From contig CADBNM010000073.1 of assembly GCA_902796055.1 (NCBI GenBank), positions 1-47,404 of the forward strand: a stretch of 47,404 nucleotides of DNA, given 5' to 3'. The notes beneath the pieces were generated by a model. It worked only from the letters and a program-made list of their open reading frames with translations, did not search any database and was not told the DNA's origin. A program made the translations under genes and the position numbers. The DNA comes from Oscillospiraceae bacterium. Lineage in GTDB: Bacteria > Bacillota > Clostridia > Oscillospirales > Acutalibacteraceae. This document shows positions 1,731 to 12,828 of this stretch, in pieces (position 1 is the stretch's first letter; every line of letters begins with the position of its first letter).

Positions 1731-1885
1731 TAGCGGCGGGATTGTCGTAAAATCGGGTGCGGGTGGCCCGCCCTTAACTTGCACCAACGGTGCAAACATC
1801 ATTTGCGATTTATCGCAAGCATCACTGCGTATGCAACATCACTTGCCGAAGGCAAACATCACTTGTAAAGTGTCCTCACTTTACA
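1731..1885 (+). repeat. hairpin-array repeat family, copy A (core plus five mini-hairpins with AACATCAYT linkers)
   Basis: Core AAAATCGGGTGcgggtggcccgCCCTTAACTT (1749-1780). Hairpins at 1780-1794, 1804-1817, 1826-1835, 1844-1854 and 1864-1885 are separated by AACATCATT / AGCATCAC / ACATCACT / AACATCACT. Positions 1835-1863 are 28/29 identical to 12655-12683. Confidence 0.8.
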
Positions 1886-4383
1886 ACCTCATATCCTGCT
1901 TGCACAATCGCTTTTTCAAGCACAGCCCTATCAACCTCTGCCGAAAGTGCGATTTTAACTTCATCCGCTTCGTGGTCGGGCGCCGCGTTTTCAACACCCG
2001 CTACTTCTTCAAGCGCCGCTTTAACTCTTGCCTCGCAATGAGCGCACATCATACCGTTAACTTTAATTGTGATTTCTTTCATTTTTTTATCCTCCATTGT
2101 CGGTTCTTTAATAATAACCGATTTTATTTTTTTGTCCCTTTTCGGGTTGTGGATGTTTATAAGATTAAGCCTGAGCGCATTCATTACAACGCAAAAACTG
2201 GAGAGGCTCATCGCCGCCGCCGCAATAATAGGCGAAATGCTGATGCCGAACGGCACAATCAGCGCGCCTGCTGCAAAGGGTATGCAAATAATATTGTAGA
2301 AAAATGCCCAGAAAAGGTTTTGCTTAATGTTCCTGTAACTCGCTCTGCCAAGGCGTATTGCCGCGGGAACATCTTGCAGTTCGTTTTTAATAAGCACAAT
2401 GTCCGCCGCGTCAATCGCAACATCCGTGCCGGCACCTACGGCAATTCCCAAATGTGCTTCGGTGAGCGCGGGAGCGTCGTTGATGCCGTCGCCGACCATA
2501 GCCACCTTGCCGTAATGCATATATTCTTTTATAACTCTTGCCTTGTCGTTCGGCATAACCTCGGCTATTACCTTATCTACGCCGATTTTTTCGGCTATTG
2601 CCTCAGCCGTCGTCCTGTTGTCGCCGGTAAGCATAACGGTGTAAATGCCCATATTTTTAAGTTCGCTTATTGCTTTTTCAGAGTCCTCTTTAGGCGTGTC
2701 CGCGCATCCGATTATTCCCGCACATTTTCCGCCGAGTGCAAAGTATATCGGCGTTTTGCCTTCGCCCGCAAGCCTTTCGCCCTCGGCTTTAAGGGCGTTC
2801 GGAACAGGGGAGTAGTCAGAAACAAATCTTTCGTTTCCGCAAGCAACAGTTCTCTTGCCGATTTCTCCGCTTATTCCGCCTCCCGCAAAGGTTTTATAAT
2901 CGGATATATTGTAAAGCCCCGTATTAAGCTCCTTCGCCTTTTGCACAATTGCTTTCCCGAGCGGATGTTCGCTCTTTGCTTCTGCAGAGTAGGCGAGCCT
3001 GAGCAGGCTTTGCTCGTCAATGCCCTCAGCGCAGATGATGTCAGTTACAACGGGTGTGCCGTTTGTTAGAGTGCCTGTTTTGTCCAGCACTGCAATTTCT
3101 GTTTTGCCCGCCTGTTCCAAGGCTTCGGCAGTTTTAAAAAGTATGCCGTTTTTTGCGCCTATGCCGTTTCCGACTGTTATCGCAACAGGCGTTGCAAGCC
3201 CAAGCGAGCAGGGGCAACTGATAACAAGCACCGAGACCGCTCTTGCAAGCGCAAAGGGAATATCCTTGCCGAGCGCAAGCCAAATTATCGCCGTGATAAC
3301 GGCAACCGCGATTACCGTCGGCACGAATATTCCTGCAACCTTATCCGCAATTTTCGCAATAGGCGCCTTTGTAGCGGCGGCGTTTTCAACCGTTTTAATT
3401 ATTTCTGCAAGACTTGTGTCGTCGCCAACATTTTCCGCTTCGCACTTTAAATATCCGGATTTTACAATCGTCGCCGCCCACACTCTGTCGCCGTTTTCTT
3501 TCTCGGCGGGTATGCTTTCTCCTGTGAGCACCGCCTCGTCAACCGCGCCCGAGCCTTCGGTAATAACGGCGTCCGCAGGCACCTTTTGCCCTGCCTTAAG
3601 TATAAATATATCGCCTTTTCTCAAATCCTCGGCAGGTATCTCGCATTCCTCGCCGTCCTTTAAAACGATAGCTGTTTCGGGCTTTAGCTTAATGAGCGAT
3701 TTTAAGGCGCTTGTGGTTTTGCCCTTGCTTCTTGCCTCTAATAATTTACCTACGCTTATGAGCGTTAGAATCATCGCCGCCGATTCAAAGTATAGCTGCT
3801 TCGAGTATTCGCTTACTGCGGCAAAATCAAAGTGAGTTTGGCAGTAACTCATCATAAACAGCACATATACGCTCCACAAGAACGATACCGCCGAGCCGAG
3901 CGATACGAGAGTATCCATATTCGGTGAGCGGTGAAGCAGGCTTTTTGTGCCGCTTACAAAGAATTTGCCGTTTATTATCATTATAGCCGCGCTGAGTATC
4001 ATTTGAACAAGCGTAAGACCTATAAGGTTTTCCTGTAAAAAGAGCGGTACGGGCAACTCGAACATCATATGTCCCATCGAAAAATACATCAGCGCAAGCA
4101 GGATTATAACCGAAGCGACAAGCCTTTTTGCGATTTTCGGCGTTTCGTTGTCCTTCAAAAGCGTATCGTAGCTTTCGCTTTTTTTGCCCTTTAGCGATGC
4201 GCCGTAGCCCGCCTTTTCAACGGCTGCAATTATTTTTTTCTCATCTGCGTTGCCTTCAACCGTCATTGAATTTGTCAGCAGGCTTACCGCACAGCTGTTG
4301 ACGCCTTCAACCGAGTTTACCGCTTTTTCAACTGCGGCGGAGCAGGCGGCGCAACTCATTCCCGTAACAAAGTAGTTTTGCAT
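1876..4383 (-). CDS. copA: copper-translocating P1B-type ATPase with N-terminal HMA and an in-frame C-terminal CopZ-like HMA domain
   Basis: Motifs GMSCAACS (N-terminal HMA), CPC (VISCPCSLGLATP), DKTGTLT, GDGINDAP and C-terminal GMMCAHCE. Start set to ATG 4383 (MQNYFVTGMSCAAC) with GGAGAG SD; the longer ORF-track start at 4473 would overlap csoR. Confidence 0.95.
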   Translation of the reverse strand: MQNYFVTGMSCAACSAAVEKAVNSVEGVNSCAVSLLTNSMTVEGNADEKKIIAAVEKAGYGASLKGKKSESYDTLLKDNETPKIAKRLVASVIILLALMYFSMGHMMFELPVPLFLQENLIGLTLVQMILSAAIMIINGKFFVSGTKSLLHRSPNMDTLVSLGSAVSFLWSVYVLFMMSYCQTHFDFAAVSEYSKQLYFESAAMILTLISVGKLLEARSKGKTTSALKSLIKLKPETAIVLKDGEECEIPAEDLRKGDIFILKAGQKVPADAVITEGSGAVDEAVLTGESIPAEKENGDRVWAATIVKSGYLKCEAENVGDDTSLAEIIKTVENAAATKAPIAKIADKVAGIFVPTVIAVAVITAIIWLALGKDIPFALARAVSVLVISCPCSLGLATPVAITVGNGIGAKNGILFKTAEALEQAGKTEIAVLDKTGTLTNGTPVVTDIICAEGIDEQSLLRLAYSAEAKSEHPLGKAIVQKAKELNTGLYNISDYKTFAGGGISGEIGKRTVACGNERFVSDYSPVPNALKAEGERLAGEGKTPIYFALGGKCAGIIGCADTPKEDSEKAISELKNMGIYTVMLTGDNRTTAEAIAEKIGVDKVIAEVMPNDKARVIKEYMHYGKVAMVGDGINDAPALTEAHLGIAVGAGTDVAIDAADIVLIKNELQDVPAAIRLGRASYRNIKQNLFWAFFYNIICIPFAAGALIVPFGISISPIIAAAAMSLSSFCVVMNALRLNLINIHNPKRDKKIKSVIIKEPTMEDKKMKEITIKVNGMMCAHCEARVKAALEEVAGVENAAPDHEADEVKIALSAEVDRAVLEKAIVQAGYEVVK

Positions 4384-4391
4384 ATTCTCTC

Positions 4392-4700
4392 CTATCTCAT
4401 CAGTTTCATCATAGTTTCGCAAAGCTCGTCTATAACCTCGTCCTTGCCTTCCCTTATGTCCCTTGCAACGCAAGAGTGAATATGAGAATTAAGCAGCGTT
4501 TTGTTAAATGAATGAATAGCGGAATTTACTGCTGCCGATTGAATTAGTACATCGTTGCAATAAGCGTCGCTTTCAATCATTTTCTTAATTCCTCTTATTT
4601 GACCTTCAATTCTGTTGAGTCGGTTTATTAGCTTTTTCTTTTGTTCTTCGCTTCGCTGCGTGCTTTTTCCCTCACAGCAACATTCGCATTTTTTCTCCAT
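4392..4700 (-). CDS. csoR: CsoR-family copper-sensing transcriptional repressor
   Basis: RLNRIEGQIRGIKKMIE..YC.DVLIQ..AV..A, the typical CsoR/RcnR (DUF156) pattern with Cys/His/Cys ligand positions. Lies directly upstream of copA. Confidence 0.9.
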   Translation of the reverse strand: MEKKCECCCEGKSTQRSEEQKKKLINRLNRIEGQIRGIKKMIESDAYCNDVLIQSAAVNSAIHSFNKTLLNSHIHSCVARDIREGKDEVIDELCETMMKLMR

Positions 4701-4716
4701 TCGCTTTTCCTTTCAT

Positions 4717-4776
4717 ATACTCCCATAGGGTATTTTTCGTTTATATTATTATATACCCCTACGGAGTATTTTTCAA
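4717..4776 (-). promoter_or_regulatory. csoR-copA promoter with two CsoR-type operators
   Basis: Minus strand: TTGAAA (4776-4771), 17-nt spacer, TATAAT (4753-4748). GC-tract inverted repeats ATACCCCTACGGAGTAT (4753-4769, filling the spacer) and ATACTCCCATAGGGTAT (4717-4733, between the -10 and the SD). Confidence 0.7.
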
Positions 4777-4794
4777 GCCCCAAAATTAATTTTG

Positions 4795-4823
4795 TTGAAT
4801 TTGCCTTTTAAATATTATATAAT
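4795..4823 (+). promoter_or_regulatory. sigma-A-type promoter for the 4853 CDS
   Basis: TTGAAT (4795-4800), 17-nt spacer, TATAAT (4818-4823). GGAGG SD at 4843-4847. Confidence 0.6.
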
Positions 4824-4852
4824 GATAGTATATAAACATTTAGGAGGTAAAT

Positions 4853-6364
4853 ATGGATAAGAAAACCGTTTTGCTCACAGGTGCTTCGGGCACTATGGGC
4901 TGGGAAGGCTTTAAGCAGCTTTACCGCAGAAGAAATAAGTTTCATATTGTTCTTTTGCTTAGGGAAAGCCCGAAAAATCTTATTAAGTTTAAAAGATTTT
5001 TAGATGACCCTAATGTAACAATAGTATGGGGCGATTTAACCGATTATAATTCGGTTTTGGAAGCCGTAAGCGGCGCCGATTATATCCTTCATGTTGGAGG
5101 TATGGTTTCTCCCGCAGCCGACTATTATCCCAAGAAAACAATTTATACAAATGTTACCGCTGCCGAGAATATCGTTAAAGCGGTAAAGGCTCAAAAAGAC
5201 CCCGATGCCGTTAAGGTTGTATATATCGGCACCGTTGCCGAAACAGGCGACAGAAATCCGCCTATACACTGGGGTAGAACGGGCGACCCGATTAAAATCA
5301 GCGTCTATGACCACTATGCGATTTCGAAGGTTAAGGCTGAGGCTGTTTTCGCCGAGTCAGGACTTAAATATTGGGTGTCGCTCAGGCAAACGGGTATTCT
5401 TTATCCTGAAATACTTAAAAATATGGATCCGATTATGTTCCATGTGCCGATTAACGGCGTGCTCGAATGGGCTACGGTTGAAGACTCGGGCAGACTGCTT
5501 GCAAATGTTTGTGATTATGATTTGCCGGAAGACTTTTGGCGCGGTTTCTATAATATCGGTTCCGGCGCTTCTTACAGACTTACCAACTTTGAGTTTGAAG
5601 AGTATCTTTTGGGCGCTCTCGGACTTCCGAGCACTAAAAAGTTATTTGAAGCTAATTGGTTCATTCTCAGGAACTTCCACGGTCAGTGGTACACCGATTC
5701 CGATAAACTTGAAGAGTATCTCCATTTCAGATACAATGTGCCTGTTGACAAGTATTTTGAAAACCTTGCTAAGCAGGTTCCCGCTTATTACAGAGCCTGC
5801 CTTGCGCTGCCTAAGTTTATGGCAAACGCCGTAGCGGCAGCAGCAAAACCGTTTATGAAGAAAATCGCTCAAACCGAAATTTACGGTACGCTTAACTGGC
5901 GATTGAAGAAAAATCGTGACAGAATTACCGCTTATTACGGCTCCGTTAAAAACTGGAAGGGCATAGGCACTTGGGAAACCTTCAAGGTTGAAAGACCGAG
6001 CGAAACTCCCACTTATCTTGACCACGGTTACGATGAGGCTAAGCCTATTGAAGAACTCGATATTGAAGATATGAAGAAAGCGGCGAAATTCCGCGGTGGC
6101 GAGTGCGTATCCAAGGTTATGGTTAAAGGTGATATCTATACGCCTCTCGTTTGGAAGAGCGCAAGAGGTAATGTCTTTGAAATGTCGCCGAACCTCGTTC
6201 TTAAAGGCGGTCACTGGTGTCCCGAGGAACTTCCTTGGCCGTGGGATTATGATACCGAGGCTAAGATTAATCCGTTCTTCGCTCAGGTTTGGTATCCGCT
6301 TCACGATAAGAACGAAAATAACTTCTACGATGAGAGAATATTTAAAGGATTTGAGGACTTTTAA
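4853..6364 (+). CDS. NAD(P)-dependent epimerase/dehydratase-fold (extended SDR) protein with a ~190-aa C-terminal extension
   Basis: Rossmann motif LLTGASGTMG and SDR-like YAISK. The C-terminal part (KFRGGECVS...GGHWCPEELPWPWDYD) is not assignable by eye. Confidence 0.8.
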   Translation: MDKKTVLLTGASGTMGWEGFKQLYRRRNKFHIVLLLRESPKNLIKFKRFLDDPNVTIVWGDLTDYNSVLEAVSGADYILHVGGMVSPAADYYPKKTIYTNVTAAENIVKAVKAQKDPDAVKVVYIGTVAETGDRNPPIHWGRTGDPIKISVYDHYAISKVKAEAVFAESGLKYWVSLRQTGILYPEILKNMDPIMFHVPINGVLEWATVEDSGRLLANVCDYDLPEDFWRGFYNIGSGASYRLTNFEFEEYLLGALGLPSTKKLFEANWFILRNFHGQWYTDSDKLEEYLHFRYNVPVDKYFENLAKQVPAYYRACLALPKFMANAVAAAAKPFMKKIAQTEIYGTLNWRLKKNRDRITAYYGSVKNWKGIGTWETFKVERPSETPTYLDHGYDEAKPIEELDIEDMKKAAKFRGGECVSKVMVKGDIYTPLVWKSARGNVFEMSPNLVLKGGHWCPEELPWPWDYDTEAKINPFFAQVWYPLHDKNENNFYDERIFKGFEDF

Positions 6365-6366
6365 TT

Positions 6367-7389
6367 ATGAAGGTGTTTATGATAGGCGGCACAGGTCTTT
6401 TAGGCTGCGAGGCTGCAAGAATATTTATTGAAAAAGGGCATCAGGTAAAGAGCGTTGCATTACCTCCGCTTCCCGAAGGTGCTCCTATTCCCGAAGAAAT
6501 GGAAATAATCTTCGGCGATATTAATAAGAAGAGCGACGATGAAATTTTATCAATGCTTGAAGGGTGCGACAGTTTTGTTTTTGCCGCAGGCGTTGACGAA
6601 AGAGTTGAATTTCCCGCGCCCGTTTACGATTATTACTATAAGTATAATATTGCTCCGCTTGAGAGAATTTTGCCTCTTTGCAAAAAGGCAGGACTTAAAA
6701 ATGCGGTTGTTTTAGGCTCTTATTTCTCCTATCTTTCCAAAAAAAAGCCTGAAATGGGCTTGCTTGAAAGAAATCCTTATTTCAAGAGCCGTATTGAGCA
6801 GGAAAAGGTTTGCGAGTCTTTTTGCGATGATACTTTCTCGGCAACCGTGCTCGAACTTCCTTATATCTTCGGCACTCAAAAGGGCAGAAGACCTGTTTGG
6901 GTAGTGCTTATTGAGCAAATTGCGGGTATGGATAAATTGCCCTTTACCCTCTATCCGAAGGGCGGCACGGCTATGCTTACAGTCCGTCAGGTAGGACAGG
7001 TAATTGTAGGCGCCGCAGAGCAGACAGGCAAGGGCTTCCAAGCAATTCCAATCGGTATGTATAATATGAATTGGAAAAAGTTTCTTTCCATCGTTTACGA
7101 TGCAAGAGGAATGGGCAAGGACAGAAAGATTATCGGCGTTCCGCCTTGGATGATGCGTATGGGTATGTCGGGCATTATTAAAGACTATGAAGAGCGCGGC
7201 ATTGAAAGCGGTATGGATCCGCTTCAGCTTCCGGATATTATGGATATTAATCTTTTTATTCCGCCGAAATATGCTAAAAGTCTCGGTGCCACCGAGGACG
7301 ATATTGAAGCGGCAATCTTCGACTCAATTAAACTGAGCGAGGAGGCATATAAAGGCACAGCCGAGCTTCTTGATATGAAAGGCGAATGA
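6367..7389 (+). CDS. NAD(P)-dependent epimerase/dehydratase-fold protein
   Basis: MKVFMIGGTGLLGCEAARIFIEKGHQV Rossmann N-terminus. Starts 2 nt after the previous stop, so a likely operon. Confidence 0.8.
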   Translation: MKVFMIGGTGLLGCEAARIFIEKGHQVKSVALPPLPEGAPIPEEMEIIFGDINKKSDDEILSMLEGCDSFVFAAGVDERVEFPAPVYDYYYKYNIAPLERILPLCKKAGLKNAVVLGSYFSYLSKKKPEMGLLERNPYFKSRIEQEKVCESFCDDTFSATVLELPYIFGTQKGRRPVWVVLIEQIAGMDKLPFTLYPKGGTAMLTVRQVGQVIVGAAEQTGKGFQAIPIGMYNMNWKKFLSIVYDARGMGKDRKIIGVPPWMMRMGMSGIIKDYEERGIESGMDPLQLPDIMDINLFIPPKYAKSLGATEDDIEAAIFDSIKLSEEAYKGTAELLDMKGE

Positions 7390-7390
7390 T

Positions 7391-7428
7391 AAAAAACAAA
7401 GGGTGTCTCGGACACCCTTTATTTTTTA
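7391..7428. terminator. bidirectional Rho-independent terminator
   Basis: Stem aaagggtgtc / gacacccttt, with an A-run before and a T-run after. Confidence 0.85.
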
Positions 7429-7430
7429 AA

Positions 7431-7665
7431 CTAAGTCGCTTCGCTAATGAAGTTGCCTTTCGGGCTAATTGAGGGCGGGACCCTTGACGAGGGTCGTCCC
7501 TTTTGTCCGCCTGTAGCGACATTTCCCCACACTGTGGGGAATAACCCGCACCCGTTCCGTTCCGCTCTATCAGAAAAAGCGTGGGGACGGTTCTTTCGCT
7601 TTTGCGCATCGGCGGGGAGTTCCTTATCAATCGCAGGGACGGTTGCTTTATTGAATGTGTTTTTA
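7431..7665 (-). repeat. hairpin-array repeat family, copy C (inverted orientation, expanded core)
   Basis: The reverse complement reads GCGGAACGGAACGGGTGCGGG...[~60-nt insert with hairpins ccccacagtgtgggg and gggacgaccctcgtcaagggtccc]...CCCGCCCTCAATTA gcccgaaaggc AACTTCATT agcgaagcgac, and then runs into the 7391-7428 terminator. No credible ORF. Confidence 0.65.
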
Positions 7666-7702
7666 TTAATTGCACCGTTTATTTTTAATTCTCAACTTGC
7701 TA

Positions 7703-7731
7703 TTGAAAAAAATCTTTATAAATTATATAAT
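7703..7731 (+). promoter_or_regulatory. sigma-A-type promoter for the GH3 gene
   Basis: TTGAAA (7703-7708), 17-nt spacer, TATAAT (7726-7731). Confidence 0.55.
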
Positions 7732-7768
7732 AAATATGTATAATTCTTTTTCCCGAAAGGAGAACACA

Positions 7769-10216
7769 ATGAGACATCGCGATATTATCGAAAAAATGAG
7801 TTTGGAAGAAAAGGCTCGCTTCGTTTCTGGTCTTGATTATTGGCACCTTGAAGGCGACGAGGATTTGGGGCTTCCTTCCATTCAGGTTACCGACGGACCT
7901 CACGGACTTCGCAAGCAGGATCCCGACAATAAGACCGTCGGTCTCGGCGGCTCTTTCCCAGCAACCTGCTTCCCGCCCGCTTCGCTTTCTGCCTGCTCTT
8001 GGGATCCCGAGCTGCTCGAGGAAGAGGGAGAGGCGCTTGCAGAGGAATGCTTGCAGGAAAAGGTTTCCGTCATTTTAGGACCCGGCACAAACATTAAGCG
8101 TGCGCCCACCTGCGGCAGAAATTTTGAGTATTTTTCCGAGGACCCCTATCTTGCAGGAAAAATGGCTGCGGGACTTATCAAGGGTGTTCAGTCTAAGGGC
8201 ATAGGTACATCGCTCAAGCACTTTGCGGCTAACAGCCAAGAGGCTTACAGAATGACTATAAACGAGGTTATAGACGAAAGAACGCTGCGCGAGATTTATC
8301 TTCCCGCATTTGAAATCGCCATTAAAGAGTCGCAGCCGTGGACGGTTATGAATTCCTATAACAGAATTAACGGCGTTTACGCTTCTCAGAACAAATGGCT
8401 GCTTGACACTGTTGCCCGTAAGGAATGGGGCTTTGAGGGTTTGTTTGTAACAGACTGGGGCGCTTCTGTTGACAGAATTCCCGGTCTTAAAGCTGGCACA
8501 GATATTGAGATGCCCTCAAGCGGTACGGATAACGATAAAATCATTATCAAAGCCATCGAATTAGGCAAGCTTGATGAAGCGGTGCTTGATGAAAGAGTTG
8601 ATAATATCATTGACTTGATTCTCAAATCCAAGCCCGCACTTGAAAACGAGTTTAAGTATGATATGGACGCTCATCATGCGCTTGCGGCTAAGGTTGCGGA
8701 GAACTCAATGCAGCTGCTTAAAAACGACGATAATCTTCTTCCGCTTAAAGAGGGGCAAAAGGTTGCGGTAATCGGCGAAATGGCTGTAAATCCGCGTTAT
8801 CAGGGTGCAGGCTCCTCCGTTATTAATCCCACAAAGATGGATAATGCTTTTGAAAACCTGCAGAAGCTCGGCGTTGATGTTTCTTACGCTAAGGGCTACA
8901 GAAAAGAAAAAGATGTTATGGAAAACTCTCTTTTTGTTGAGGCAATTAACCTTGCAAGAGAGGCTGATGTTGTGATTGTTTTTGCAGGACTTACCGAGGC
9001 GTTTGAAGGCGAGGGCTATGATAGAAAGAATATCAATATGCCTTCCGTTCAAAACAGGCTTATCTCCGAGATTTGCCGCGTGAACAAAAATGTCGCTGTT
9101 GTTCTTGCAGGCGGCTCCGTTGTTCGTATGCCGTGGGCGCATAAGGTTAAGGCTATACTTAACTCGGGACTTGGCGGTCAGGCAGGCGGTATTGCTGTTG
9201 CAAATATTTTAACGGGTAAGGTTAACCCGTCCGGTAAGACTACCGAAACATATATTAAGGATTATAAGGACAACCCGACTTACGGCAACTATCCTTCAAT
9301 GGCTCAGACCTCCGAGCATAGAGAATCGGTATTTATCGGCTACAGATATTATGATAAGACCAACAAAAATGTTGTATTCCCGTTCGGTCACGGTCTTTCT
9401 TACACTACCTTTAAATATTCGGCGCTTAAGCTTTCCTCTTCGGCTATAAAAGATACCGATGAAGTTACTGTAACTTTCAAAATTAAGAACACCGGCAAGG
9501 TAGCGGGTGCTGAAATTGCTCAGGTTTATGTTGCCGATAAGAAGTCAACTATTTTCAGACCTGAAAAAGAGCTTAAGGGGTTCAAGAAGGTATATCTTGA
9601 AGCAGGCGAGGAAAAGGAAATCAGCCTCACTCTTGATAAGCGTGCTTTTGCTTTCTACAATATCAACATTCACGATTGGTGCGTTGAAAGCGGCGACTTT
9701 GAAATACTTGTAGGCGCGTCCTCAAGAGACTTGAAGCTTAAAGCAAGGTTGAGAGTTAAATCAACCGTTGATTGCGAAATTCCCGATTATTCCAAAACCG
9801 CTCCCAATTATTATAACGATGTTACTGCTATCACGAGGGAAGATTTTGAAGTTCTTTACGGCAGAAAGCTTCCGAGCCCCGTTAGAGATAAGAACAAGAG
9901 AATTGATAAGTATTGCTGTCTTGACGACGCAAGAGACACAAAGTGGGGCGGCAGAATTTGCGAGCTTATCAATAAGGCAATGTCGGGCATGGGCTCCGAC
10001 GCTAACGGAGACGGTGCAATGCTTGCCGCTATGGCAACGCAGATTCCAATGCACAACTTTGTTGCAATGAGTATGGGCGCTTTTACTCCGCAGATGCTCA
10101 ACGGACTTCTTAAACTTCTTAACGATGAAGAATCATCGGTAGACGGCGTTGCAAAGATTGTAGCGGGAATTCCCAATCTTGTCAAAAGAATTCCGGTACT
10201 TTTAAAATCAATTTAA
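7769..10216 (+). CDS. glycoside hydrolase family 3 beta-glucosidase (BglX-like) with Fn3-like domain and extra C-terminal tail
   Basis: GH3 hallmarks: SLEEKARFVSG, GPHGLRK, KHFAANSQE, VTDWGA. Start set to ATG 7769 (AAAGGAGA SD); the ORF-track start at 7670 lies in the promoter region. Confidence 0.93.
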   Translation: MRHRDIIEKMSLEEKARFVSGLDYWHLEGDEDLGLPSIQVTDGPHGLRKQDPDNKTVGLGGSFPATCFPPASLSACSWDPELLEEEGEALAEECLQEKVSVILGPGTNIKRAPTCGRNFEYFSEDPYLAGKMAAGLIKGVQSKGIGTSLKHFAANSQEAYRMTINEVIDERTLREIYLPAFEIAIKESQPWTVMNSYNRINGVYASQNKWLLDTVARKEWGFEGLFVTDWGASVDRIPGLKAGTDIEMPSSGTDNDKIIIKAIELGKLDEAVLDERVDNIIDLILKSKPALENEFKYDMDAHHALAAKVAENSMQLLKNDDNLLPLKEGQKVAVIGEMAVNPRYQGAGSSVINPTKMDNAFENLQKLGVDVSYAKGYRKEKDVMENSLFVEAINLAREADVVIVFAGLTEAFEGEGYDRKNINMPSVQNRLISEICRVNKNVAVVLAGGSVVRMPWAHKVKAILNSGLGGQAGGIAVANILTGKVNPSGKTTETYIKDYKDNPTYGNYPSMAQTSEHRESVFIGYRYYDKTNKNVVFPFGHGLSYTTFKYSALKLSSSAIKDTDEVTVTFKIKNTGKVAGAEIAQVYVADKKSTIFRPEKELKGFKKVYLEAGEEKEISLTLDKRAFAFYNINIHDWCVESGDFEILVGASSRDLKLKARLRVKSTVDCEIPDYSKTAPNYYNDVTAITREDFEVLYGRKLPSPVRDKNKRIDKYCCLDDARDTKWGGRICELINKAMSGMGSDANGDGAMLAAMATQIPMHNFVAMSMGAFTPQMLNGLLKLLNDEESSVDGVAKIVAGIPNLVKRIPVLLKSI

Positions 10217-10218
10217 TT

Positions 10219-10250
10219 AAAAGAAACGGCTTCTTTGCCGTTTCTTTTTT
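10219..10250 (+). terminator. Rho-independent terminator
   Basis: Stem gaaacggc / gccgtttc, then TTTTTT. Confidence 0.8.
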
Positions 10251-10258
10251 GGAGGATT

Positions 10259-11395
10259 ATGATTAAAAAAATTATTGAAAATAAAGAAAAAAAGGTTGAA
10301 TATATAGAACTTATTTATGATTTGATTTTTGTCTATATCATAGGCAGGAACAACTCGCTTTTACATAATATAACAGGCGGATTTTTTGATTTTTCGGCTT
10401 TTGCTTCTTATGTTTTTTGTACCCTCGCCGTTATCCAGATATGGACATTTACAACTTACTATATCAATGTTTACGGTAAAAAGAGCATAAGAGAGCATAT
10501 CAGCCTTTTTATAAATATGTTCTTGTTATATTTTATGGCGCAGGGAACAGGCGAGCATTGGCGCGATTATGTTGTGCAGTACCATATTGCGTGGGCGCTC
10601 ATTCTTGTAAATATAGGAATTCAGTATCTTTTTGAATACTTTAATCATACCGAGCCTGTTCATAAAAAACGAAGCGCAACAATGGCGACTATTCTCTTCT
10701 GCGAGGCAGTTGCGGTTATCCTTTCGCTCGTTGTTTACAGTTTCACATCGCTTACTTATATTTCTATCGGCGCGATTTTATTAGGCGTAACGGCGGTTGT
10801 TATTTCTTCAAAACATAATTGTTCGGCGGTGGTTGATTTTGCGCACCTTTCGGAGCGCATAATGCTCTATGTTGTGTTCACTTTCGGAGAAATGATTATA
10901 GCCGGCGCCTCATATTTTGAAGGAAAAATGAGTTTTAGCAGCGTTTATTTTGCTTTGATGGCATTTCTCATTGTCGCAGGCTTGTTTTTGAGTTACGGAA
11001 TTTTCTATGACAATATCATAAACAAAGAAATGCAAACTAACGGTATAGCGTATATGATTAGCCACATTGTAATTATTTTTGCGCTTAATAATATCACTTC
11101 TTCGCTTGAATTTATGCGTGATGAAGAAGTGGCGCTCATTCCTAAAATTTCATTTCTGATTATTTCTTTTACTCTTTATTATATTTTCCTTTTCATAAGC
11201 GGCGTGTTTGCAAATAAAAAGGGCAAAGCGGATAAAAGACTGCTTATAGTTATAGCGGCAAGCAGCGTAATATTTAGTGCGCTAATGTTGATTTTGAGAA
11301 ATAATATGTATTTTAATATAGCGTTGAGCGTTGTTTATGTGTTCAGTCTGTTTTTGCTCACTTATTATATTGTAAAAAAGAAAAATAACGGATGA
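10259..11395 (+). CDS. LtrA-like (low temperature requirement A family) polytopic membrane protein
   Basis: N-terminal VEYIELIYDLIFVYIIGR resembles the LtrA-family signature, and the protein has many TM segments. ATG 10259 is preceded by GGAGG 10251-10255. Confidence 0.7.
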   Translation: MIKKIIENKEKKVEYIELIYDLIFVYIIGRNNSLLHNITGGFFDFSAFASYVFCTLAVIQIWTFTTYYINVYGKKSIREHISLFINMFLLYFMAQGTGEHWRDYVVQYHIAWALILVNIGIQYLFEYFNHTEPVHKKRSATMATILFCEAVAVILSLVVYSFTSLTYISIGAILLGVTAVVISSKHNCSAVVDFAHLSERIMLYVVFTFGEMIIAGASYFEGKMSFSSVYFALMAFLIVAGLFLSYGIFYDNIINKEMQTNGIAYMISHIVIIFALNNITSSLEFMRDEEVALIPKISFLIISFTLYYIFLFISGVFANKKGKADKRLLIVIAASSVIFSALMLILRNNMYFNIALSVVYVFSLFLLTYYIVKKKNNG

Positions 11396-11412
11396 ATCAT
11401 CCGTTATTTTTC
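11384..11412. terminator. Rho-independent terminator overlapping the stop codon
   Basis: Stem aataacggatg / catccgttatt, then a T-run. Confidence 0.75.
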
Positions 11413-11471
11413 TTTTTTGTGTGAGAGTAATTATATAAAGTGATTAATTCACCTTATTGAATAAATATATA

Positions 11472-11765
11472 TTAAGCAACTTCCTCAATAGCGGAAGAAT
11501 AATCAGCGCTTTTAATAACTCTCAGATTCGGGCGAAGGTCGCAGCCGAGTTCGCGCAGCTCTTTCTCCCTAAGCTCCTGTTCTCTCAAAAAGCGAGCCAT
11601 GCGAAGCTTCTCGCTCCTCTCGTTTTCCCTTTGCTTTTTGCTTATGGATTTTGCAAAAATCTTTTTGAGCAGCTTTCTTTCAAAAAGAGCGATTTTCTCT
11701 TCAAAAATAAAAGCTACTATAAAAGCTACGCCTATAATTAATTCTATTGCAATTCTGGTTGTCAT
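11472..11765 (-). CDS. small single-pass membrane protein (97 aa), putatively SOS-regulated
   Basis: ATG 11765 with GGAGG SD (11779-11775). N-terminal TM segment IAIELIIGVAFIVAFIF, then a charged E/K/R-rich region. LexA-type box abuts the SD. Preferred over the overlapping + strand ORF 11457-11741, which has a TTG start and no SD. Confidence 0.65.
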   Translation of the reverse strand: MTTRIAIELIIGVAFIVAFIFEEKIALFERKLLKKIFAKSISKKQRENERSEKLRMARFLREQELREKELRELGCDLRPNLRVIKSADYSSAIEEVA

Positions 11766-11779
11766 TTTTCATTACCTCC

Positions 11780-11845
11780 CGAACATTTGTTCCTTTTACG
11801 CTTATATTATAGCACGAAAAAAGCATTTGTCAATACATTTGTTCG
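11780..11845 (-). promoter_or_regulatory. SOS-type promoter: TTGACA/TATAAT with two LexA (Cheo) boxes
   Basis: Minus strand: TTGACA (11833-11828), 16-nt spacer, TGcTATAAT (-10 at 11811-11806). Box 1 CGAACATTTGTTCC (11780-11793) lies between the -10 and the SD. Box 2 CGAACAAATGTATT (reverse complement of 11832-11845) overlaps the -35. Confidence 0.65.
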
Positions 11846-12059
11846 ATATTTTTCAAATTTTAGGTACTCAAAAAAGGACTTTGCACTCTTAAAACGCGAA
11901 TTTTGTTTGAAAAAACGCTCGTTTTCACTAAAAACAGGTGATTTTAAGCGAACAAATTAAGAAAAAAATCGAACAAAACCGAACAAATTATAGATTGTTG
12001 AAATAATGAATATAATATGGTATTATAATATTAATAAGAGAAGGGGAGAAAAAAGAAAA

Positions 12060-12371
12060 ATGGATGCATTTTCAAATACAGCAGGAATAATAGTTTTAGG
12101 CTTTGTTGCAATAGCCGCGGGATTTATACCGACATATATGGCGTTTTATAAAAAGAACGCAAACGCCGACTCCGTTTTAAAGTTCAACGCCGTATCTGTT
12201 TTAGGTATCGGCATTATCGGTATGGCACTCGGTCTGATTTTCCAATCTGCAGGCGTGAGCGATAAGGTATGGGCGCTGATAATTCTGATAATAATCGAGC
12301 TTGTCCGCCTCGTCGCGTGGATATACCTGCTAATAAAAACCGTCAAAGACGAGGACTTGTTTATATTCTAA
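12060..12371 (+). CDS. small hydrophobic membrane protein (103 aa, ~3 TM), unknown function
   Basis: ATG 12060 is preceded by AAGGGGAG. Hydrophobic segments GIIVLGFVAIAAGFI, VLGIGIIGMALGLIF and ALIILIIIELVRLVAWIYLLI. A terminator follows. Confidence 0.6.
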   Translation: MDAFSNTAGIIVLGFVAIAAGFIPTYMAFYKKNANADSVLKFNAVSVLGIGIIGMALGLIFQSAGVSDKVWALIILIIIELVRLVAWIYLLIKTVKDEDLFIF

Positions 12372-12407
12372 AAAAGAGGGGCTGTTTTTTTACAGCCCCT
12401 AATTTTA
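12372..12407 (+). terminator. Rho-independent terminator
   Basis: Stem aggggctgt / acagcccct, with a T-rich loop and tail. Confidence 0.75.
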
Positions 12408-12410
12408 ATG

Positions 12411-12683
12411 GGGGGTGCGAATGTGTCGCCCGGCAGCGCTGTGCGCTGAGTGATATTCGCCATCGGCGAGTGATATATTGCTACGCAATGTGATATTGTG
12501 CTTCGCACAGTAATATTCGATTTCTAAGAACTCGAGTTGAGGTGGCGGAACAAAGTTTCGCAATTTAAATCGGGTGAGGGCAGAGCCCTCCATTAACTTT
12601 TGCGAAGCGAAAACATCATTTGCGCTTTAGCGCATACATCATTACACAAACTGTAACATCACTTGCCGCAGGCAAACATCACT
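12411..12683. repeat. hairpin-array repeat family, copy B (two opposed arrays around a GC-hairpin core)
   Basis: Left array: 9-mers AGTGATATT / AGTGATATA / TGTGATATT / AGTAATATT at 12449, 12469, 12489 and 12509 (exact 20-nt phase), separated by 11-nt palindromes. Core AAATCGGGTGagggcagagccctCCATTAACTT at 12568-12599. Right array: AACATCATT / TACATCATT / AACATCACT / AACATCACT at 12612, 12635, 12655 and 12675. Confidence 0.85.
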
Positions 12684-12720
12684 AAAAACGGGTTGATACT
12701 TTGTACCAACCCGTTTTTTT
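12684..12720 (+). terminator. Rho-independent terminator abutting the hairpin array
   Basis: Stem acgggttg..ta / ta..caacccgt, followed by TTTTTTT. Confidence 0.75.
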
Positions 12721-12828
12721 ACGAGATTGCGAGAAAGCGAGATTAGCGGAAGTGCAAAAAACGCTGAACCGAGTTCAGCGTTTCTTTTTTTATTAGTCTG
12801 CACGGTTTTAGCCGCTTTATCACAATCT
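12721..12828 (-). repeat. terminator-associated mosaic repeat module in the yebC 3' region
   Basis: The minus strand reads GGCTAAAACCGTGCAGAC (reverse complement of 12796-12813), then a hairpin, then TTTTTGCACTTCCGCTAA (reverse complement of 12743-12760). The same blocks occur at 26831-26847 and 26953-26970. Confidence 0.7.
12755..12791. terminator. bidirectional Rho-independent terminator (yebC)
   Basis: Stem aacgctgaac / gttcagcgtt, flanked by A- and T-runs. Confidence 0.8.

Follow-up and report, generated by a model that had tools for sequence, protein, structure and literature searches.

The closest described relative of the element studied here is the Gut-1 motif (RF01706), which Rfam types as 'Gene; sRNA'. 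In Weinberg et al. 2010 (PMC2864571) its ratings are 'certainly RNA' and 'probably not cis-regulatory', and no function, host or composite description is given; in their original Stockholm file, arrays of GUGAUAUU and hairpins are followed by arrays of AAUAUCAC and hairpins, after a stop codon and a terminator. Our search of the literature on Gut-1 found nothing besides that paper.

Other systems share part of its organisation. The REP/BIME elements of Enterobacteria, with their RAYT transposases, and the REPINs are also high-copy extragenic palindromes at gene ends; they form arrays of alternating orientation with short linkers, fold into larger hairpins, turn over fast and act as stabilisers or attenuators at transcript ends (for the repeat described here, this last role is a proposal). 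REP sequences conserve the palindrome, however, whereas here the palindromes vary and a linker of 7-9 nt is conserved; the stems differ between units and between copies, and no RAYT/Y1 transposase was found among the flanking genes. The BOX elements of Streptococcus pneumoniae (boxA-boxB(n)-boxC) are similarly modular, intergenic and confined to one lineage, with a variable number of tandem units and complementary end modules, but their sequence is unrelated, boxB consists of 45-nt copies of one sequence instead of variable hairpins of 11-18 nt, and BOX does not carry a terminator of its own. Plasmid iteron and centromere arrays (R1 parC/ParR, the WATCACW heptads of omega) place a short repeat in two opposed clusters as well; the present repeat, in contrast, is unphased, chromosomal and multi-copy, has covarying hairpins as spacers and lacks a partner gene. 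Finally, the hyper-stable d(GCGAAGC) mini-hairpins and the hairpin promoters of the phage N4 virion RNA polymerase appear to resemble its units in their stems of 4-7 bp, C-G closing pairs and GNA loops on one strand, but these are single hairpins with defined flanking bases and not arrays, and no N4-like polymerase context is seen at the repeat.

The element at 12411-12683 and its match to Gut-1

Within the window, the whole stretch of 47,404 nt analysed here, this element consists of two opposed arrays of mini-hairpins joined by a conserved 9-mer (Table 1). When the sequence was re-read, the left 9-mers (AGTGATATT, AGTGATATA, TGTGATATT and AGTAATATT, at 12449, 12469, 12489 and 12509) proved to stand in exact 20-nt phase with the palindromes cgcc-atc-ggcg, ttgc-tac-gcaa and gtgc-ttc-gcac between them, and the right 9-mers (AACATCATT, TACATCATT, AACATCACT and AACATCACT, at 12612, 12635, 12655 and 12675) to run in the opposite orientation, as the preliminary description had it; the right arm is the reverse-complement orientation of the left. 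The right-hand fillers (tgcgc-ttta-gcgca, acacaaactgt and tgcc-gca-ggca) are all palindromic except the second, which is weak. The central GC hairpin was read directly, and the terminators said to enclose the element are indeed present as terminator-like hairpins on both sides, each bidirectional. The element had further been called ORF-free: no credible gene lies inside, although mechanical ORFs of 46-74 aa overlap it. It is placed between the convergent 121-aa gene and yebC. The octamer RTGATRTT occurs 25 times in the window (5.9 expected), clustered at two loci, and the element has fold z-scores of -8.9 (+ strand) and -8.4 (- strand); two opposed arrays of this kind far exceed chance.

The preliminary description knew of no family with this organisation, a statement that no longer holds, as the left array is a bona fide match to Gut-1. 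The Rfam model matches 12448-12521 (+) with 61.7 bits against a gathering score of 50 (E = 6.9e-12, or 5.9e-10 over the whole window), and our own model of the arm (R1) gives 38.7 bits. With membership defined by a covariance-model score of at least the Rfam gathering score of 50 bits, the left arm belongs to Gut-1, and the right arm and the second locus of the window fall below the threshold; read on the - strand, the right arm gives weak Gut-1 matches of 19.9 bits (Rfam) and 15.9 bits (R1). The element is thus already catalogued in part, its left half being a clear match to Gut-1. The likeness extends to the three consecutive short hairpins with GUGAAAU-type linkers, to the gut origin, to the position after a stop codon and a terminator, and to the inverted AAUAUCAC arm seen downstream in the original alignment. 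The Rfam model, however, covers one arm only. In the window copy the linkers read GUGAUAU, an additional hairpin precedes the arm, the centre spans about 90 nt, and an inverted second arm follows whose score stays under the threshold.

Two further copies had been proposed in the window, and they fared differently. The first, at 1731-1885, is confirmed: the centre box recurs there (AAATCGGGTG-hairpin-CCCTTAACTT), with four AYATCAY linkers after it. It is preceded by the bidirectional terminator of an upstream fn3-domain gene (1689-1729), and its last hairpin, of 10 bp, overlaps the stop codon (1876-1878) of a P-type ATPase gene on the - strand; the genes around the two loci encode an fn3-domain protein, a P-type ATPase, the 121-aa protein and YebC. 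Model R1 gives 24 bits at 1835-1885 (-) with E = 0.003, and the Rfam Gut-1 model 18.7 bits, under the gathering score of 50. The two window copies have diverged from each other, with compensatory changes. The second proposed copy, at 7431-7665, has no 9-mers, no match to the Rfam model or R1 and a fold z-score of -1.4; it was rejected as a third copy. It is a distinct insertion, which the relative whose YebC is 97% identical lacks. Across 1876-12400 that relative has the same gene order, and the idea that this segment is an island, inserted between direct repeats (the copy at 1750-1886 and the right arm of the element at 12411-12683), was rejected on this ground.

Table 1. Coordinates of the features at the two loci of the window
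Feature	Position	Strand	Remarks
Half element (second locus)	1750..1886	+	centre box AAATCGGGTG-hairpin-CCCTTAACTT, a hairpin, then four AYATCAY linkers with hairpins
121-aa gene	12006-12371	+	upstream neighbour; no family match
Left bidirectional terminator-like hairpin	12377..12400	both	immediately behind the 121-aa gene's stop codon
First hairpin (P0), cagcgc-tgt-gcgctg	12434..12448	+	abuts the first linker; counterpart of P0 in canonical elements
Left arm (Gut-1 motif)	12449..12517	+	four linkers in 20-nt phase; three 4-bp hairpins with 3-nt loops
Centre hairpin, GCGGAAC-aaa-GTTTCGC	12545..12561	+	G.T wobble on the + strand
Centre box	12562..12599	+	AATTTAAATCGGGTG, hairpin gagggc-aga-gccctc (12576-12590), CATTAACTT
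Right arm	12600..12683	+	hairpin ttgcgaagcgaa, then four AYATCAY linkers at 12612, 12635, 12655 and 12675
Right bidirectional terminator	12684..12718	both	abuts the last linker
Separate terminator of yebC	12759-12783		

Layout, covariation and spacing of the family

About 100 related loci, nearly all from uncultured Oscillospirales of human and animal guts, have a common layout: a bidirectional intrinsic terminator, an arm of 3-4 GTGAWRT linkers around mini-hairpins of 4-5 bp, a short centre complementary to the 5' edge of the element, an inverted arm of about 4 AYWTCAC linkers with hairpins of 5-7 bp between them and, often, a second terminator. Consecutive covarying hairpins with GUGAAAU-like linkers, which are the Gut-1 trait, are present in this family, and 16 further Gut-1 matches above the gathering score lie in 14 of the related loci. 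At the level of sequence, these comparisons show Gut-1 to be the left arm of a larger polar, multi-copy, terminator-flanked hairpin-array repeat of gut Clostridia. An orphan 'small RNA' of unknown organism in Rfam since 2010, it is now placed in uncultured Oscillospirales; what is new is that it appears as the arm of a dispersed polar repeat that carries a terminator, prefers the 3' flanks of tRNA genes and recurs beside a gene of family PF05635. The question moves from the target of an sRNA to what spreads or maintains the cassette, and to whether transcript ends of abundant gut bacteria are shaped by it.

The window copy is a variant, with its extended centre (about 90 nt), unmatched linkers in the two arms (GTGATAT versus GTGATGT) and no complementarity between the 5' edge and the centre. 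Its centre box is also found in the half element at 1750..1886 and at two related loci (L245 and L387). Across the family, 62% of the elements have a 5' edge complementary, for 9 nt or more, to the centre of the same element, against 8% for the centres of other elements, and the majority linker is the same in both arms of 30 of the 34 composites, where a permutation predicts 14.

Across 98 distinct arrays, 98.7% of the modelled cells are paired and 362 cells have changed on both sides, with such changes in all 9 modelled pairs; shuffled arrays give a covariation score of 0.186, and 0 of 500 shuffles reach the observed 0.968. Within the linkers, T, G, A and the final T are invariant and the first G is kept in at least 90%. 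The proposal that selection acts on hairpin potential and not on the filler sequence is thus borne out by overwhelming covariation over about 100 arrays. At the box homologous to 12545..12561, the relative with 97% YebC identity has GCGAAGC-aaa-GCTTCGC, so that the stem is preserved although both of its sides have changed. GCGAAGC occurs literally in many units. The pair closing the loop is C-G in 96% of the hairpins, and the loops on the AYWTCAC strand are c-GNA-g and c-GNNA-g, the classic loops of hyper-stable DNA mini-hairpins.

Stem length sets the distance from linker to linker, which takes values of 16-26 nt in 2-nt steps; periods of 20-21 nt make up only 34%, so that the earlier argument from two helical turns of DNA fails for the family. 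Since the period follows stem length and not helical phase, a phased double-stranded iteron or centromere array is unlikely, and we infer that the element works as a folded single strand. Likenesses to CRISPR, type III toxin-antitoxin repeats, K-turn/box C, DnaA boxes, parS half-sites and CRP/Rex half-sites were dropped because spacing, partner genes or the second strand did not fit.

Genomic context and turnover

The element sits distal to co-oriented genes, and to tRNA genes especially. A tRNA gene lies at most 200 nt upstream on the same strand for 14 of the 83 arms and on the opposite strand for 0 of 83, and of the upstream ORFs 39 share the arm's orientation while 11 oppose it; in all, 53 upstream genes run the same way as the arm, against 11. 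No orientation bias is seen for downstream ORFs (18 versus 26). The upstream terminator is part of the repeated unit, as shown by two copies of one locus (L065) that are identical, terminator included, and by the hairpin AAAAAAGCACTTGC-N4-GCAAGTGCTTTTTT, found ahead of the arm at at least 11 loci behind different tRNAs. The element starts with a degenerate linker CAAC-GAAAT and ends with an inverted ATTTCAC, which might be taken for terminal inverted repeats of a MITE, but the repeated unit reaches beyond them to the terminators.

The element is multi-copy, and is replaced or lost between close strains. Copy numbers, as taken from the window and from related loci such as those of 8 kb, come to 2 loci in the 47 kb of the window and 2-3 copies in each of several 8-kb loci, and near-identical pairs occur in L065, L089, L020 and L387. 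At the yebC locus, the proximal element is replaced in the relative with 97% YebC identity; at 94% it is degenerate, and at 88% and 81% it is missing. No direct sign of mobility was found: the edges of the copies in L065, L036 and L040 show no target-site duplication, and neither a transposase nor a clean empty site was seen; relatives that lack the element at the yebC locus offer no clean empty site because everything downstream differs as well. Beside the window copies there is no rep, par or integrase gene, nor does one recur among the flanking genes. A phage origin was rejected, as only about 20 of roughly 400 pattern matches in viral contigs are true arrays and most of those have host-like tRNA flanks. 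In practical terms, the element breaks short-read assemblies of its host genomes; it lies at most 260 nt from a true contig end at 18 of the 54 genome loci.

The folded strand, its likely role and the alternatives

In either arm, cells that depart from Watson-Crick pairing are mostly G.T when read on the top strand (about 14 events versus about 4 A.C), and the bias is seen in the right arms too, where model bias would act oppositely. With fewer than 20 events, incompletely independent and read from a model-based alignment that includes terminal pairs, this is a usable but modest signal for the folded strand; a call from internal mismatches alone was dropped, as the events were too few (6 versus 2, then 2 versus 3). 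G.U pairs make up about 1% of the stem cells, and structured RNAs are expected to carry far more; near-perfect palindromic stems fit a DNA-level or two-strand constraint as well. No promoter was found between the upstream terminator and the arm, and promoters made of linkers or located in the centre were rejected for want of consistent -35/-10 elements. The Gut-1 arm may be expressed as an ncRNA in the modelled orientation, for which the co-orientation of 53 versus 11 and the tolerance of G.T give indirect support.

The explanation that we prefer, and to which we would give about an even chance, is that the window locus belongs to an intergenic repeat, multi-copy and specific to the gut Oscillospirales lineage, with Gut-1 as its left arm, working as a folded single strand at transcript ends. 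Our best guess at its role is a transcript-end module like REP or BOX, folded as RNA. The folded strand would most likely be RNA co-directional with the upstream gene, arising where strongly expressed genes are read through or leave 3' trailers. The stable stack of hairpins, together with pairing between the arms, would then give a compact rod that caps the 3' ends of transcripts and shields adjacent transcription units from each other both ways, as for REP/BIME and BOX. The conserved linkers would pair between the arms, be recognised by the factor that copies the element to new sites, or both. Besides the scarcity of wobble pairs, the loops typical of DNA mini-hairpins, the modest strand signal and the missing signs of mobility, two further points count against this explanation: the upstream terminator should block most transcription into the arms, and the window copy departs from the family in its unmatched arm linkers and in the missing complementarity of its 5' edge and centre.

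Gut-1 could instead be a free-standing, trans-acting sRNA whose single-stranded GUGAWAU linkers titrate an RNA-binding protein or an RNA, in the manner of CsrB/RsmZ or the tRNA 3'ETS sponges. Such a function would agree with the classification of Gut-1 as RNA by Rfam and by Weinberg et al., with the multivalent layout of identical linkers between covarying hairpins, with the terminators that bound the unit and with its frequent location in tRNA trailers. We nonetheless regard it as unlikely, in view of the missing promoter from the upstream terminator to the arm and of copy numbers that suggest tens of diverged copies per genome and not one conserved gene. Loss or replacement between close strains would be unusual in a regulator, and the unit is present in both orientations within one element, so that a single-stranded protein site would be shown as two different sequences.

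Equally unlikely, in our judgement, is a single-stranded DNA element of hyper-stable mini-hairpins, copied by an HUH enzyme (REP/RAYT-like, IS200/IS605-like or a rolling-circle Rep) that reads hairpin and linker. The stems are almost wholly Watson-Crick, the c-GNA-g/c-GNNA-g loops stand on the AYWTCAC strand with 96% C-G closing pairs, and there are multiple copies, some genomes having paralogues that are nearly identical. On one phage contig (L195), an array of GTGAAGT and hairpins lies directly upstream of an HUH rolling-circle Rep gene (PF23343, phrog_3584), and the GTGATATT linker resembles what we take to be the phiX174/pC194 nick sequence CTTGATATT, which is a lead only. This Rep association is single, however, and no Y1 transposase or Rep was found among the roughly 100 flanking ORFs scanned, nor by tblastn; the hairpin sequences vary among units, unlike those of REPs, and under this reading each arm should fold on its own AYWTCAC strand, whereas both arms show a wobble bias for one and the same strand.

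Somewhat more doubtful is the speculation that Gut-1, instead of being a conventional sRNA, is the cis part of an undescribed copy-and-paste system, which would place cassettes of terminator and hairpin array precisely behind tRNA and other highly expressed genes, with linkers read by a trans factor; the PF05635 protein and an HUH enzyme as in L195 would be candidates for this factor.

It is quite improbable that the element is specifically the cis partner of the PF05635 protein, an Avd-like ('23S rRNA intervening-sequence') four-helix bundle for which 4-5 linkers would be putative docking sites of an oligomer, copies without the gene being orphans. For 7 of the 83 arms (about 8%), behind different tRNAs, the gene follows the right arm directly, always co-oriented and equally far away; no other family turned up more than twice in the scan of flanking genes, and four further such loci occur in viral contigs. 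More than 90% of the copies, however, including both window loci, have no such gene nearby, and a small gene could simply have hitch-hiked with the element. What lies downstream of the four-helix-bundle gene is variable (DUF4240, cytidine deaminase or unknown proteins) and includes no reverse transcriptase, and a DGR context was rejected for this reason.

A double-stranded array of protein-binding sites (iterons, a centromere-like site, integrase arm-type sites or operators of an adjacent promoter) could draw on the conserved 7-9-mer in two opposed arrays, the exact 20-bp phase of the window's left arm, the resemblance of AYATCAC to what are presumably the WATCACW heptads bound by the omega repressor, the promoters often found directly after the right arm and a placement beside tRNA genes that recalls att sites, but is the least probable reading of all, as the period varies over 16-26 bp with stem length and keeps no helical phase, the fillers covary as hairpins, for which a double-stranded spacer offers no reason, the chromosomal copies probably number in the tens, and rep, par and integrase genes are neither beside the window copies nor recurrent in the flanks, the HUH Rep of L195 being the exception. 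Of the two readings that the preliminary description had left open, the iteron- or centromere-like array is thus unlikely, given its unphased periods and the lack of rep and par genes, and a multi-hairpin single-stranded nucleic acid is favoured.

The Gut-1 element and its copies in the window

The window is bacterial chromosome; its genes include those for YebC, RsmF, YitT, mini-RNase III, LtrA, a GH3 glycosidase and a P-type ATPase, and YebC has its nearest named homologues in uncultured Acutalibacteraceae, Oscillospiraceae and Clostridia. At gathering thresholds, Rfam gave a single match, at 12448-12521 on the forward strand, to the Gut-1 RNA (RF01706; 61.7 bits, gathering score 50), whose consensus has three hairpins separated by GUGAAAU. 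The match covers the left arm of the main element (copy 2). Gut-1 was reported by Weinberg et al. 2010 (PMC2864571); in their Stockholm file, a stop codon and a terminator precede arrays of GUGAUAUU with hairpins, and arrays of AAUAUCAC with hairpins come next. The preliminary description was thus wrong in stating that no described family has such an organisation: copy 2 is a further instance of a motif already known and catalogued. We found no literature on Gut-1 after that report. Its composite structure, its hosts, the terminator it carries, the tRNA polarity, the association with PF05635 genes and its repeat-like dynamics appear to be undescribed in the literature searched. Together they suggest that 'REP/BOX-like element' describes Gut-1 better than 'classical small RNA'. 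This view should be of moderate interest to specialists of RNA and of genome repeats, and any mechanism remains a proposal.

Direct reading of the sequence confirmed the two opposed arrays (Table). The right-arm unit is the reverse complement of the left-arm unit with one base changed (GTGATAT vs GTGATGT). On the forward strand, copy 2 runs in the order 121-aa gene, terminator, first hairpin (P0), Gut-1 arm, hairpin GCGGAAC-aaa-GTTTCGC (with one G.T wobble on this strand), AATTTAAATCGGGTG, GC hairpin, CATTAACTT, hairpin, inverted arm and terminator, and yebC converges on it from the opposite side with its own terminator. There are 25 occurrences of RTGATRTT in the window (5.9 expected), concentrated at two loci, and copy 2 folds with z-scores of -8.9 and -8.4 against shuffles on the two strands.

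Of the two related copies proposed earlier, that at 1731-1885 (copy 1) is genuine; its final hairpin overlaps the stop codon of a convergent P-type ATPase gene. Copies 1 and 2 have a common layout and mostly different stems, with compensatory changes (e.g. tgcga-ttta-tcgca vs tgcgc-ttta-gcgca), and are old paralogues kept under structural constraint rather than recent insertions. The other, at 7431-7665, is not a copy: its fold z-score is -1.4 and it has no match in Rfam. Here a terminator (7395-7425) is followed by about 240 nt with GC hairpins and recurring GGGAC(G)GTT-like boxes, between epimerase and GH3 genes. As these two genes are adjacent, without the spacer, in a relative with 97% identical YebC (L251), 7395-7665 is a strain-specific insertion of another kind than the Gut-1 repeat.

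Features of the window element and PF05635 genes beside related arrays
Feature	Locus	Position	Remarks
Bidirectional terminator-like hairpin	copy 2	12377-12400	flanks the element
cagcgc-tgt-gcgctg	copy 2		immediately before left-arm array; direct reading
Left-arm 9-mers AGTGATATT, AGTGATATA, TGTGATATT, AGTAATATT	copy 2	starts 12449, 12469, 12489, 12509	+ strand; direct reading
Left-arm fillers	copy 2	between 9-mers	11-nt palindromes, 4-bp stem and 3-nt loop; direct reading
Right-arm linkers AACATCATT, TACATCATT, AACATCACT, AACATCACT	copy 2	starts 12612, 12635, 12655, 12675	direct reading
Bidirectional terminator-like hairpin	copy 2	12684-12718	flanks the element
yebC terminator	window	12759-12783	separate from those of copy 2
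Half element, centre box and inverted arm	copy 1	1750-1886	+ strand; behind fn3-domain gene and its terminator
PF05635 gene	L006	237-593	~115 aa
PF05635 gene	L021	4814-5170	~115 aa
PF05635 gene	L030	223-576	~115 aa
PF05635 gene	L083	1046-1390	~115 aa
PF05635 gene	L122	1271-1615	~115 aa
PF05635 gene	L266	878-1222	~115 aa
PF05635 gene	L294	6522-6857	~115 aa
PF05635 genes, further loci	L512, L517, L528, L535

Hairpin covariation, linker spacing and strand

Pattern scans over genomes, metagenomes and viral contigs, in which only matches with hairpin fillers were kept, yielded 128 non-identical arrays in 98 loci, nearly all in genomes of Oscillospirales type assembled from the guts of humans, ruminants and other animals; the short-hairpin arm is Gut-1 by Rfam in 14 of the 18 loci tested. 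A covariance model built on 17 equal-length arms retrieved 104 arrays. In the resulting alignment, which was fitted to structure and with which the raw sequences agree, 98.7% of stem cells are in standard pairs, two-sided changes occur in 9/9 modelled pairs (362 cells), and the covariation score is 0.968 vs 0.186 in shuffles, none of 500 reaching it; sliding the pairing partners abolishes the signal. The selection of the fillers for hairpin potential, proposed from the window alone, is thereby borne out.

The linker-to-linker period is 16, 18, 20, 22 or 24-26 nt, i.e. the sum of 7 nt, the loop length and two stem lengths, and only 34% of periods are of 20-21 nt. Linker spacing is therefore set by hairpin length, not by helical phase, and three 4-bp stems with 3-nt loops account for the exact 20-nt phase of the window, formerly read as two helical turns. 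These results speak against a double-stranded binding array in helical phase and in favour of a probable function as a folded single strand; of the two readings initially offered, the multi-hairpin single strand is favoured, and the phased protein-binding array is disfavoured by both spacing and covariation.

The evidence on strand, and on RNA or DNA, is mixed. Stems are almost perfectly Watson-Crick (G.T in about 1% of cells, internal mismatches still rarer). The loops, which on the GTGAWRT strand are TTC, TGC, TAC and TAAC, TTAC, TGCC, read c-GNA-g and c-GNNA-g on the opposite strand, the closing pair being C-G in 96% of hairpins; c-GNA-g and c-GNNA-g are the loops of hyper-stable DNA mini-hairpins, e.g. 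d(GCGAAGC). The rare non-Watson-Crick cells are asymmetric: left arms have G.T on the top strand (8 events), right arms have A.C in their own GTGAWRT sense, which is G.T on the same top strand (5-7 events), and A.C on the top strand accounts for about 3-4 events. As the wobble direction is the same in both arms, these small and partly non-independent counts are suggestive of one strand, co-directional with the upstream gene, folding across both arms, which would fit an RNA coming from that direction.

Modular architecture and dispersal

The element is a dispersed, modular and polar repeat, with strongly selected hairpins and a terminator that it carries along. On the strand that gives the Gut-1 arm as GTGAWRT, its canonical order is an upstream gene, often a tRNA gene; a bidirectional terminator; CAAC and a degenerate first linker such as GAAAT or TAAGT; hairpin P0; three units of GTGAWRT with a 4-5-bp hairpin; a centre reverse-complementary to the degenerate linker and the P0 5' arm; about four units of AYWTCAC with a 5-7-bp hairpin; and, last, either a promoter followed by a gene or a second terminator. 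The 5' edge is complementary over at least 9 nt to the element's own centre in 62% of elements, vs 8% with the centres of other elements. There are four linker variants (GTGAAAT, GTGAAGT, GTGATAT and GTGATGT), and both arms have the same majority linker in 30/34 composites (14 expected by permutation). Copy 2 is among the 4/34 with unmatched arms; with L387 and L245 it falls into a subfamily of extended centre (box TTTAAAT...hairpin...CC(A)TTAACTT). Some genomes have a second linker class, (A/G)CATCAT / ATGATGT. Its arrays alternate in tandem with GTGAAAT arrays and terminators at L020 (3500-3850), and arms stand back-to-back, not head-to-head, at L036 (950-1250); arms thus behave as shuffleable modules. 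In several genomes (L088, L089, L064) the right arm is followed by a conserved stretch of about 50 nt (…gagttccaacacatacgcaaaaacagcaaaaatatctttttt…), which in L089 is duplicated along with the element.

A tRNA gene lies at most 200 nt upstream of 14/83 short arms on the same strand and of 0/83 on the opposite strand, with at least 10 tRNA specificities (amino-acid identities). Upstream ORFs are co-oriented in 39 cases vs 11 opposed; no orientation bias was found among downstream ORFs. At L065, two copies behind different genes are identical from the terminator A-run onward, and the hairpin AAAAAAGCACTTGC-N4-GCAAGTGCTTTTTT precedes the arm at 11 loci or more, a few nt from the 3' ends of different tRNAs; the terminator is the element's own. 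The element is multi-copy (two loci in the 47 kb of the window, 2-3 copies in several 8-kb loci), and in 18 of 54 genome loci less than 260 nt separate it from a true contig end, a hallmark of assembly-breaking repeats. Independent assemblies of the strain of the window (the Logan contigs L003 and L004, and L001) end about 90-97 nt past the yebC stop codon, or have a scaffold gap there, just short of the element, which fits such a repeat.

The element turns over between strains. Downstream of yebC in the strain whose YebC is 97% identical, the array is another one (ATGAAAT x4), the centre box is inverted, and the sequence departs from that of the window right after the stop codon; at 94% identity there is only a degenerate array, and at 88% and 81% none. 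Compared with window 12372-12828, 3232-3600 of this relative (L245/L251) is unrelated from the first base past the yebC stop codon, and terminator, array type and centre-box orientation all differ; the relative also has an 866-aa fn3-domain gene that the window has not. Where they carry hairpin-array elements, the ends of genes in this lineage seem to be hot spots of recombination.

Neighbouring genes and possible function

We propose that the element is transcribed along with the upstream gene, as read-through or trailer RNA, and that this RNA folds into stacked stable hairpins, which pairing between the complementary linkers of both arms may zip together. This stack would cap 3' ends and insulate neighbouring transcription units, as REP/BIME and BOX elements are thought to do, and the constant linkers might serve inter-arm pairing and/or recognition by a factor that propagates the element. 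Taken as a whole, this package has in our view about an even chance of being right. An autonomous small RNA or sponge is unlikely, given the lack of a promoter and the many copies. A single-stranded DNA element served by an HUH enzyme would agree with the loop chemistry, the perfect stems and one phage locus, but no enzyme gene recurs, and we consider it improbable. That locus (L195 5950-6160, viral contig IMGVR_UViG_3300031555_006911) is on a tailed-phage contig that also has terminase genes; a five-linker GTGAAGT-hairpin array and four or five ATCTCGT-like heptads lie directly upstream of an HUH rolling-circle Rep gene (PF23343, phrog_3584) and may be an origin region, the only array-HUH Rep association found.

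The sole family recurring in more than two of about 100 flanking ORFs is PF05635, the 23S rRNA intervening-sequence protein, an Avd-like four-helix bundle. Its gene accompanies 7/83 arms and four related viral-contig loci, always directly 3' of the right arm and in the same orientation, behind different tRNAs; the window has none. The proteins are 54-60% identical to that of L006, where 15 nt with no visible promoter separate the last linker from the PF05635 ATG. That the element is a docking platform for this protein is very unlikely, as the gene is absent from more than 90% of copies. A double-stranded iteron, centromere or att-arm array, contradicted by the spacing and the covariation alike, is also very unlikely.
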